From a virus: DNA of 64,000 nt. Positions within the stretch are counted from its first letter, which is position 1. Each line of letters starts with the position of its first letter. Positions 2,377 through 10,175 of this stretch are shown here, piece after piece. The position numbers and the translations under genes are program-made. The stretch covers positions 32,001 to 96,000 of the IMG/VR virus record IMGVR_UViG_3300015371_000001. One strand, written 5' to 3'. The notes beneath the pieces are model-generated. The model ran no database searches and was not told where the DNA came from. It was given only the letters and a program-made list of their open reading frames with translations.

Positions 2377-4215
2377 GTGAGCGGACTTGCAGGCTACCTC
2401 TCGTCTCCCCTGGACGAGGCGAGCCTTCCGCTAGAATCTATCTTTGCTGAAGAACCTGTACCGCTCACCACGTTCGTGCAGGACCGGAAGTTCCTGGGCA
2501 ACCCCCCGCTGAGTCCGATCCAGTACCAGGCAGTCCGGCACATCGAGCAGATCTATTTCCCAGAGACGTACAAGCTGATGGCTCAGCAGTTCGGGGAGTA
2601 TTGGGAGCCGGTCAGGCCGATCAATTTCGCCACGCTCCAGTGGGGCAAGGGTTCTGGCAAGGACCACATCTGCCGTGTCTCCAGCTTGCGGATCGCCTAC
2701 CTCTTGATCTGCCTGAAGTCACCGCAGGAGTACTTCGGCATTGCGCCGCAAGACACGATCCACATGCTCAACGTTGCGTCCAGCCGACTCCAGGCAAACA
2801 ACGCATTCTTCACTCCGTTGGTCAAGGCCGTGCAGCGTGGCTGGTTCGCCGATCACGCTCACGACAAGCAGGACGTGATCATCTGGAGCAAGAACATCGA
2901 GTCCATCTCCGGTCACGCTGACGCCGAGTCTCAGGAGGGCATGAACCTCATCTTGGGGATCGCCGACGAGATCGACGCCTTCCGCTCCAAAGAGGAGTTG
3001 TTGAGCTACCGAGCCAAGCAGGCGCGTGAGCCTACTCGTTCTGCTGAAGCCATCCTCAAGATGCTGCGTACGTCGGCCAGCACCCGGTTCCCTCAGACGT
3101 TCAAGATCGTCCAGATCTCCTATCCGAGGTACCTGGGCTCCACGATCCAGCAGTTGACCAGGCGGGCCAAGCAGGACTTCAAGGAGAAGGGGCCGCGTTC
3201 GCGCTACTACGTGGACGGCCCTCGGGCTACTTGGGACGTACGGCCCGGTCTCACGAAGGAGAACTTTGCCGAGGACTACGTCGAGGACGAGATCATGGCG
3301 CGCTCGATGTATGAGTGCAAGCCAGCCCGAGCCGTTGATGCGTACTTCCGGAACCTTGATGCACTCCACGCCTGCGTACGGGACGAGGAGTCCCCGATCA
3401 AGGTGGACTACAAGCTGGAGAAGGAGCGCGGCTCCAAGGTGTGGGTGCCGCGCTATCACTTCGACCCAGGCTTCTACCCGATCAAGGGTGCGAGCTATGT
3501 GATCCATGCGGACATGGCGGTCAAGAACGACCGAGCCGGAGTGGCGATGTCCCATGTCGTGCGGTGGGACACCCAAGAGTTCACCAGTCACGACGAGGAG
3601 GGCGGCGAGGAGCGCTGGCACGATCAGCGTCCGTTCGTGAAGTGCGACTTCATCTTCAGCTTCCAGGCTGATCTGAACGACAAGCCGCCACGAGAGATCC
3701 AGATTCGGTGGGTCCGGCAGTTGGTGTTCGAGCTACTGCGGCAGGGCTTCCCCATCGCACGGGTGACGTTCGATCAGTTCGAGTCGCGTGACTCCATGCA
3801 GATCATCGAGTCCAAGGGAGTCGAGACTGAGCGTGTCTCACTGGACCGTGACGAGACGGCATGGCGGACTCTGCGTGACTTGATGTATGAGGTGCGCTTG
3901 TCGATGCCGATGAGCAAGATCCTGATTGAGGACGAGCTTCCGTCATTGCAGAAGTTGTCCAACGGCAAGATCGACCACCCGCCGATGGGGTCCAAGGACG
4001 AGGCCGACGCGCTCGCCGGGTCAGTTATGGGCGCTATCGAGATCGGTGGTGCTGAGGACCCCGATGGGCAGCGGGCGTACTTCGGCAGTGACCGGTTCGG
4101 TGGGGCACTCGGACCGGGCGGCAAGTTGTTCAACCAGCCTCGGTCGCATCGGTATGACGAGCCAGTCGTCAGCGACACCGTCGGCTACTCGGTGAGTTGG
4201 TGGGGTGACGGATGA
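2377..4215 (+). CDS. terL: Terminase large subunit
   Basis: Walker A-like WGKGSGKD, Walker B ILGIADEID, RNase H-like nuclease motifs IHADMAVKND and IDHP..GSKDEADA; directly upstream of the portal. Confidence 0.9.
   Translation: MSGLAGYLSSPLDEASLPLESIFAEEPVPLTTFVQDRKFLGNPPLSPIQYQAVRHIEQIYFPETYKLMAQQFGEYWEPVRPINFATLQWGKGSGKDHICRVSSLRIAYLLICLKSPQEYFGIAPQDTIHMLNVASSRLQANNAFFTPLVKAVQRGWFADHAHDKQDVIIWSKNIESISGHADAESQEGMNLILGIADEIDAFRSKEELLSYRAKQAREPTRSAEAILKMLRTSASTRFPQTFKIVQISYPRYLGSTIQQLTRRAKQDFKEKGPRSRYYVDGPRATWDVRPGLTKENFAEDYVEDEIMARSMYECKPARAVDAYFRNLDALHACVRDEESPIKVDYKLEKERGSKVWVPRYHFDPGFYPIKGASYVIHADMAVKNDRAGVAMSHVVRWDTQEFTSHDEEGGEERWHDQRPFVKCDFIFSFQADLNDKPPREIQIRWVRQLVFELLRQGFPIARVTFDQFESRDSMQIIESKGVETERVSLDRDETAWRTLRDLMYEVRLSMPMSKILIEDELPSLQKLSNGKIDHPPMGSKDEADALAGSVMGAIEIGGAEDPDGQRAYFGSDRFGGALGPGGKLFNQPRSHRYDEPVVSDTVGYSVSWWGDG

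Positions 4216-10175: not shown

Follow-up and report, generated by a model that had tools for sequence, protein, structure and literature searches.

Comparison with described systems

Phage proteins that are injected together with the DNA decide the first minutes of an infection, both in host takeover and in the escape from defence, and almost all of them are known from sequence only. Polyvalent proteins and effectors fused to portal or MuF proteins have been recognised through comparative genomics (PMC5512222), fusions of ADP-ribosyltransferases (ARTs) with portal or head proteins have been described (PMC9503650), and portal fusions with PBECR, 2H, InPase, Nudix and ART domains have already been mentioned (PMC5512222, PMC9503650). 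Here we analysed a stretch of 64,000 nucleotides (the window), bases 32001-96000 of the 141,276-bp IMG/VR virus record IMGVR_UViG_3300015371_000001 (completeness estimate 96%), which derives by metagenome assembly from an uncultured 141-kb soil phage, and in particular one of its genes, P0001, in which a portal domain runs on into about 1500 aa of cargo. We consider it probable (roughly 0.68) that P0001 is the sole portal of this phage and bears a C-terminal polyvalent effector cassette which would be enclosed in the capsid, cut free, ejected with the DNA and then act on the host. The novelty of such a fusion, implied in a preliminary description of the locus, was overstated, as portal-effector and portal-ART fusions have both been published (PMC5512222, PMC9503650); P0001 is a real, large example of the known phage practice of attaching effectors to head proteins and not a new type of system. 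What is particular to it is the size and number of the modules on the portal, the clean swap of cargo between carriers that are 72% identical, and an uncatalogued module within the cargo, domain D.

Polyvalent proteins (PMC5512222, PMC9503650) resemble P0001 in holding many effector domains (ART, HExxH, uncharacterised) in one polypeptide, in the position of their genes among those for terminase, portal, MuF and protease, and in the varied architectures of their relatives. In line with the working definition of a polyvalent protein, an ART (ART1), a second ART-like module (module C), domain D, a HExxH module and a further ART-like segment (segment F) lie behind the portal within the head module. 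A Pfam search of the cargo gave no polyvalent model (ART-PolyVal, LPDs) and no metallopeptidase family above cut-off; the MPTase-PolyVal model, which we take to be PF18818, was not among the matches. The published portal fusions were regarded as the "simplest architectures" with one effector, whereas on the portal studied here there are at least five modules in about 1500 aa of cargo. The cargo had been labelled as polymorphic-toxin-like, and the swapping of cargo which that label implies is indeed seen, but "polyvalent protein" is the closer term.

The MuF polymorphic toxins (PMC5576092), such as the EFV MuF-ART toxin, likewise combine a conserved head-protein N-terminus with a swappable C-terminal toxin-like domain; the ARTs of the EFV toxin and of P0001 belong to the same Pfam family and both genes sit in the packaging module. 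The carrier of these toxins is MuF, which binds the portal in SPP1 (gp7; PMC5576092) and is present there in one to two copies, whereas the carrier here is the portal itself, at 12 per virion. The defining feature of a MuF toxin is its N-terminal MuF domain, and the N-terminus of P0001 is a portal. A portal ring normally consists of 12 copies per virion, located at one capsid vertex. The MuF toxins were described from temperate phages; the source phage is a large one (141 kb).

T4 Alt is packaged in the head and injected with the DNA (PMC5512222); like ART1 it is an ART of the R-S-E type, presumed to be head-carried and to modify proteins of the host as infection begins (PMC5512222). ART1 lies covalently within the portal polypeptide and its release is hypothetical. 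T4 Alt, by contrast, is a free protein; a capsid-targeting sequence directs its loading, and the prohead protease of T4 trims it.

The closest isolated phage is Microbacterium phage Magritte (OR553905), which shares the order of terminase, portal, MuF-like protein, large multidomain protein and scaffold. The Magritte portal (gp13, 581 aa) is approximately 50% identical to the portal domain of P0001, and a 1991-aa protein, gp17, is encoded separately. The possibility that gp17 is the P0001 cargo in split form was considered and rejected, as there is no sequence similarity between the two. The gp17 gene (L001:12047-18022), annotated as "hypothetical protein", lies between the MuF-like gene and the scaffold and yielded a weak GNAT match only; it is probably Magritte's own unfused cargo protein.

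The portal domain and integrity of the gene

The gene and the features of its N-terminal part are as follows.

4212 to 10175, + strand: whole portal-cargo gene (P0001), one uninterrupted ATG-started frame of 1987 codons (1987 aa)
4212 to 5591, + strand: Mu gpH-type portal domain, aa 1-460 (PF06074, phrog_113)
5556 to 5786, + strand: Pro/Gly/Ser-rich linker, aa 449-525 (composition scan, at least 40% Pro/Gly/Ser)
5781 to 5831, + strand: HPR header tag 1 (VELTWDPTLHPRDPIGQF), aa 524-540 (motif scan)
6300 to 6362, + strand: HPR header tag 2 (VVELATMWQERLHPRDNDGKF), aa 697-717 (motif scan)

The match to PF06074 spans aa 72-420 and nearly the whole model (positions 5-331 of 336; E 9e-32; 111.1 bits against a cut-off of 23.9), and phrog_113 is matched with E 1e-42. 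A genome-wide profile search returned P0001 as the sole PF06074 match in the 141-kb genome (115.9 bits), with no PF04860 portal and no second PF06074 match in the record; other portal families were not searched. Within the portal domain, identity is 48-79% to seven aligned portals and 47-57% to 80 IMG/VR loci. The Pro/Gly linker reported earlier behind the portal domain was recovered as the Pro/Gly/Ser-rich stretch listed above. The HPR motif which follows it ([VL]EL..W...LHPRD..G.F) also heads two stand-alone giant cargo proteins, P0105 and P0133, at around residue 20, and both of these carry module C.

The start codon of the gene shares bases with the stop codon of the terminase gene (ATGA, 4212-4215). 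G+C content at third codon positions (GC3), counted in this frame, is 0.60-0.91 across all 19 blocks of 100 codons, and because it stays high in frame throughout, the gene appears to be coding from end to end. The joining of the portal to some 1500 aa of cargo in one gene is thus borne out by the single 1987-codon frame and by the coding bias along its whole length. Megablast of the gene returned no match among 50,697 phage records.

A programmed frameshift producing an additional short portal was also considered. No slippery heptamer was found near the portal/cargo junction, and the two in-frame heptamers of the form X XXY YYZ within the cargo are about as many as expected by chance; the frameshift was therefore rejected. 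The two heptamers are CCCAAAA at window positions 6603-6609 (aa 798), where a stop appears in the -1 frame after 1 codon, and GGGAAAG at 7623-7629 (aa 1138), where one appears after 17 codons.

Cargo exchange among related portals

The search for portal relatives in IMG/VR gave 141, the best 80 loci of which contain 75 complete portal open reading frames (ORFs) of 463-758 aa; the module at aa 600-830 of P0001 was not found in the portal ORFs of the 80 relatives searched. Long forms of this portal clade were found in six other clusters of a 5.8-billion-protein collection, at 1107-2494 aa and from independent assemblies, with the following cargo.

P0006: zeta kinase, GNAT and two ParB-like repeats
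P0008: two ARTs
P0010: zeta/AAA_33
P0011: topoisomerase I
P0007 and P0009: unassigned domains

P0006, the closest relative, is 72% identical to P0001 over aa 1-522 only, after which similarity ends (BLASTP), and we conclude from this break that the cargo has been exchanged in the linker. When the C-termini of related portals (48-79% identical) were compared, the cargo was either quite different or, in most cases, missing, so that the suggested polymorphism of the cargo is confirmed, with homologous portals bearing unrelated cargo from about residue 522 onwards. This apparent swap in the linker is the pattern of polymorphic toxins, here on a portal.

These relatives also bear on whether the fusion could be an artefact, in which chimeric assembly or an error in sequencing joined an ordinary portal gene to a cargo gene of its own. 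The record does come from a metagenome assembly, and in Magritte the portal and the 1991-aa protein are indeed separate genes; gp17 is unrelated to the P0001 cargo, though, and the 1527 further codons free of stops, with a continuous in-frame GC3 bias, speak against such an error. Moreover, the linker is conserved in P0006, an independent assembly in which it also runs into long cargo, and there are five further independent long forms together with two ORFs in IMG/VR in which a portal is fused to domain D. We therefore regard an artefact as very improbable.

The ADP-ribosyltransferase and other cargo modules

Behind the linker and the tags, the cargo comprises the following features in addition to domain D, which is treated separately below.

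6693 to 6851, + strand: possible SH3-like/DUF4314 module, aa 828-880 (weak; PF14192 E 0.003, below cut-off; phrog_3782 E 0.008)
6915 to 7445, + strand: ADP-ribosyltransferase of the VIP2/Alt R-S-E type (ART1), aa 902-1078 (PF03496, PDB 1qs2)
7491 to 7844, + strand: module C, a possible minimal ART, aa 1094-1211 (YRG / VTT / E-[FY]-IYRP)
8805 to 9278, + strand: HExxH gluzincin-like module (E), aa ~1532-1689 (HEMGH at 1589-1593, EMYAELWAKY at 1666-1675)
9549 to 9866, + strand: degenerate ART-like segment (F), aa ~1780-1885 (WWG for xRG, VTT, no ExE)
10092 to 10163, + strand: basic C-terminal helix motif (EYERIKAKFARRNKAAQERLRKG), common to a 1290-aa protein encoded upstream

Three ART calls had been made for the cargo, of which that for ART1 is solid and the other two are not. 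The VIP2-like ART placed after the portal matches PF03496 above cut-off (E 1e-10, or 2e-12 as a segment; 41.3-47.5 bits against 23.4). Its PDB matches are VIP2 (1qs2, E 5e-6) and, from Serratia, the effector Tre1 (6dre, E 6e-5). The three expected catalytic elements were all found: R973 (nt 7128-7130), STT at 998-1000 (7203-7211) and the EKE motif E1058-K-E1060 (7383-7391). HMMER pairs VVRHF of ART1 with the YR of VIP2, and EKELLLD with EKEILLD; the STT (FLSTTIS) was assigned by motif, HMMER having put the VIP2 STS approximately 13 residues later. The R-STT-ExE catalytic site is complete and the enzyme apparently active.

For the second, YRG..ESE domain, the motifs are in place (aa 1147-1207; 7650-7832), but the likeness to ARTs is partial. 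In hhalign, an ART profile built here gave a probability of 71% (E 4e-5), the alignment being confined to the N-terminal half and placing YRG at the catalytic Arg; among four homologs just the last E of the "ExE" is conserved. No Pfam match was obtained for module C, and its AlphaFold2 (AF2) model reached a pLDDT of about 55-64. Module C is a small conserved unit of 115 residues; copies that are 54-69% identical occur in three large proteins (P0065, P0105 and P0133), and the C-terminal part of phrog_2579 matches it (E 8e-6). We put it forward as a possible minimal ART and no more.

The HEMGHE motif reported as a zincin is present where it had been placed (8976-8993), but modelling gave no confident fold (pLDDT <50 in the HExxH region). 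A spacing of 77 residues separates HEMGH from EMYAELW, and the HEMGH and Glu-helix motifs are both kept in P0057, whose C-terminal HExxH module is 29% identical; P0057 is the sole detectable relative of the module. The nearest Atlas cluster, "Pro-Pro endopeptidase" (0.86), is given as a lead only, and Pfam and PDB sequence searches of the zincin region produced no match. P0057 itself is a metagenome protein of 1663 aa with at least three HExxH...E...E.[FW] modules, DUF7178 and domain D; it is a multi-zincin polyvalent protein.

The third ART-like segment had been called degenerate, and this holds, with WWG at the expected R and the ExE missing. Its likeness to the ART fold is a language-model lead from the Atlas feature score only (0.95, with PF03496 in 17 of the 30 nearest clusters), hhalign being weak and the AF2 pLDDT <50; segment F would be an inactive relative at most. 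More generally, word-index homolog searches with aa 1440-1900, at shorter and similar lengths, returned the query alone, and an NCBIfam search of the cargo segments gave no match for any of them. The AF2 model of aa 1094-1900 had a mean pLDDT of 56.5 and was confident for domain D only, and Foldseek with this model was uninformative, speaking neither for nor against ART or zincin folds of modules C, E and F.

The degenerate segment raises the question of whether the extension is mainly a structural, portal-anchored internal core which organises the DNA or aids ejection, its enzyme-like domains being largely vestigial. Long low-complexity and coiled-coil stretches in P0001 would suit such a core, as would the basic C-terminal helix held in common with another large basic protein upstream; yet ART1 keeps every catalytic residue, the HExxH and Glu helix are conserved, and cargo that is swapped wholesale among close relatives, and missing in most, is unlike a structural requirement. 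A structural role is thus considered improbable, and an effector cassette remains the preferred reading.

Domain D

The domain reported without assignment after the second ART-like domain is real, and is highly conserved in other proteins.

7881 to 8438, + strand: domain D, aa 1224-1409, a widespread cargo domain of phage head modules, function unassigned (WGGxTID, FHDDD, DxDP, GGAY, GxGxWPP)

It is the best-conserved part of the P0001 cargo. Representative clusters, counted at 50% identity, number 669 at E<=1e-3, falling to 533 at <=1e-10 and to 196 at <=1e-30, and aligned sequences are 38-57% identical with WGGxT, LGxF..D, DP, GGA and GxGxWP invariant. No Pfam family was matched; LPD5 (PF18799) was considered and rejected, having been hit below cut-off (E 0.15) in one of 23 domain D sequences. 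The AF2 model built from 23 sequences is confident (pLDDT 94). In a Foldseek search of the PDB nothing reached E<=1e-3, many weak ATP-grasp rows being all that was returned, and the best Z of VIA-align against 48,161 chains was 3.6. No solved relative was therefore found for the predicted structure, and a new fold is not claimed. Matches in BFVD (probability 1.0) are to uncharacterised phage proteins.

Domain D is almost confined to phage contigs, where its usual gene position is right after portal and MuF; in the genomes of 185,579 cellular species it was found at four loci only, all on contigs of metagenome-assembled genomes. Among 68 other carriers, its portal partners are PF04860 (three), PF06074 (two) and the P23-45 portal (two), with MuF in three further cases and DUF7178, the commonest Pfam partner, in five; the effector partners include zeta toxin, ART, glutamine deamidase, PemK, Nudix, 2H, GNAT, Arr and ART-PolyVal. 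Domain D also occurs by itself, for example in the 153-aa P0110. Of 74 IMG/VR loci that encode domain D, at least 30 have a same-strand upstream portal detected with a limited set of portal profiles, and two of the domain D ORFs are themselves portal fusions. One of these two, on a 73.7-kb IMG/VR contig, is a frame of 3023 aa (L088:5496-14564, +) with a portal-profile match and domain D at 824-1008, which is larger than P0001. In related phages domain D forms the C-terminal half of a DUF7178-D protein of 550-590 aa, whose gene directly follows the MuF-like gene.

L063:4735-6501: DUF7178-D gene in a related phage
L060:8397-10055: DUF7178-D gene in a related phage

As a common module linked to head genes, with a confident model and no family assigned, domain D merits a Pfam entry and biochemistry. 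A more tentative proposal, possible but on balance doubtful, is that domain D, with its invariant acidic and aromatic motifs, would represent an undescribed enzyme-like family for capsid-delivered cargo and/or that the portal fusion would constitute a delivery device which processes itself and sets the dose at 12 copies, with cargo recombined at the linker.

Proposed packaging, release and action of the cargo

The C-termini of a portal, in its crown, face the capsid interior, and packaging via the portal is for this reason the most reasonable reading of the fusion. Up to 12 copies of the cassette would be enclosed per head, together with the portal, during procapsid assembly. By an arithmetic estimate, 12 cassettes amount to about 2 MDa, or approximately 1% of the volume of 141 kb of DNA, and capsid capacity is therefore no obstacle. 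The cassette would then be cut free, probably into modules, by its own HExxH metallopeptidase and/or by the gpI-like prohead protease encoded downstream.

11342 to 12463, + strand: Mu gpI-like prohead protease/scaffold, candidate cargo-releasing enzyme (PF10123 E 8e-9, phrog_328 E 5e-12)

A zincin module has been proposed by Iyer et al. to cut polyvalent proteins into working units (PMC5512222). The freed modules would leave, unfolded, via the portal and the tail together with the DNA. In the first minutes of infection ART1 may ADP-ribosylate host proteins on arginine, as T4 Alt does, while the remaining modules may act on other host or defence targets. Cleavage is the critical step, because cargo still tethered to the portal would not be injectable.

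The occurrence of domain D in fusion with three portal families, with MuF and with varied effectors in other proteins argues for delivery of the cassette in the capsid. Several points weigh against it. Covalently tethered cargo is not injectable and no cleavage site is known; there are two HPR tags for at least five modules, so that processing guided by the tags would leave most modules joined; and twelve tails of 1500 aa could hinder ring assembly or DNA packaging. The large cargo is dispensable in this portal clade, since in 75 of the best 80 IMG/VR relatives the complete portal ORF measures just 463-758 aa. For the HExxH module, a zincin fold and activity are predictions, and the phage is uncultured, its locus having been read as DNA sequence alone.

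The short portals of most relatives can also be taken to mean that a trimmed portal is the functional norm, in which case the long protein would be made late and its cargo might act at that stage in the producing cell, being cleaved before or during procapsid assembly or acting while still attached, with only the trimmed portal present in the virion. The targets would be host or phage proteins, for instance in host or defence shut-down or in the control of assembly. P1 DdrB, which is reported to be processed before packaging (PMC5512222), offers a precedent, and the cassette has a HExxH module of its own. Set against this, a fusion to the portal C-terminus would be an odd route by which to express a cytoplasmic late enzyme, and the same modules recur on MuF, on portals of other families and within the block of head genes, which is a recognised signature of packaged proteins. 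We thus hold action in the producer cell to be unlikely, if less so than a structural role, and retain delivery with the DNA as the favoured reading. P0001 offers a compact test case for it, with a carrier of known copy number, one intact and assayable active site, and natural swaps of cargo on near-identical carriers.

Neighbouring head genes

The head module is Mu-like, its genes encoding, in order, a 799-aa DUF6582 protein, a 1290-aa protein, terminase, portal-cargo, MuF-like protein, gpI-like protein, decoration protein, endonuclease VII and an E-type major capsid protein. The genes on either side of P0001 are as follows.

2377 to 4215, + strand: large terminase, 612 aa (its homolog directly before the Magritte portal is annotated as terminase)
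10331 to 11326, + strand: separate cargo-free MuF-like head protein, 331 aa (PF04233 E 0.004, phrog_2662 E 5e-12)

A Pfam search of the terminase gene product gave no match. The MuF-like protein scores below the Pfam cut-off (18.3 against 29.6 bits) and retains the C..C/HPNCQC motif; it is 24% identical (E 6e-15) to the product of the gene after the portal in L063. That MuF is here a separate gene (10331-11326) without a cargo domain agrees with the earlier account. The endonuclease VII gene (window 12941-13372, +; PF02945, phrog_2633) sits between the head decoration and major capsid genes.

The 1290-aa protein (G000:C1:30472-34344; window -1528..2344, +), directly before the terminase, is very basic and of low complexity and has no Pfam or PHROG match. 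The basic helix motif (Y.R...FA.RNKA.Q.RL), which is found in the last 25 residues of P0001, recurs near its C-terminus (BLASTP 52% over 23 aa, pairwise E 4e-6), and these were just two copies in a whole-genome motif scan. The 1290-aa protein may be a second head-internal protein with a common docking or targeting element. The 799-aa DUF6582 protein (E 2.5e-14; G000:C1:27866-30265, L003:9866-12262, +) has, near residue 166, an HPR motif (VLELANTFEEAEHPRHPDGRF) which is the third in the genome, and is likely another tagged cargo protein upstream of the terminase. Further upstream of the head module, a gene (G000:C1:20090-22963, L003:2090-4960, +) encodes a 957-aa radical SAM protein (Radical_SAM_N2 and Radical_SAM).

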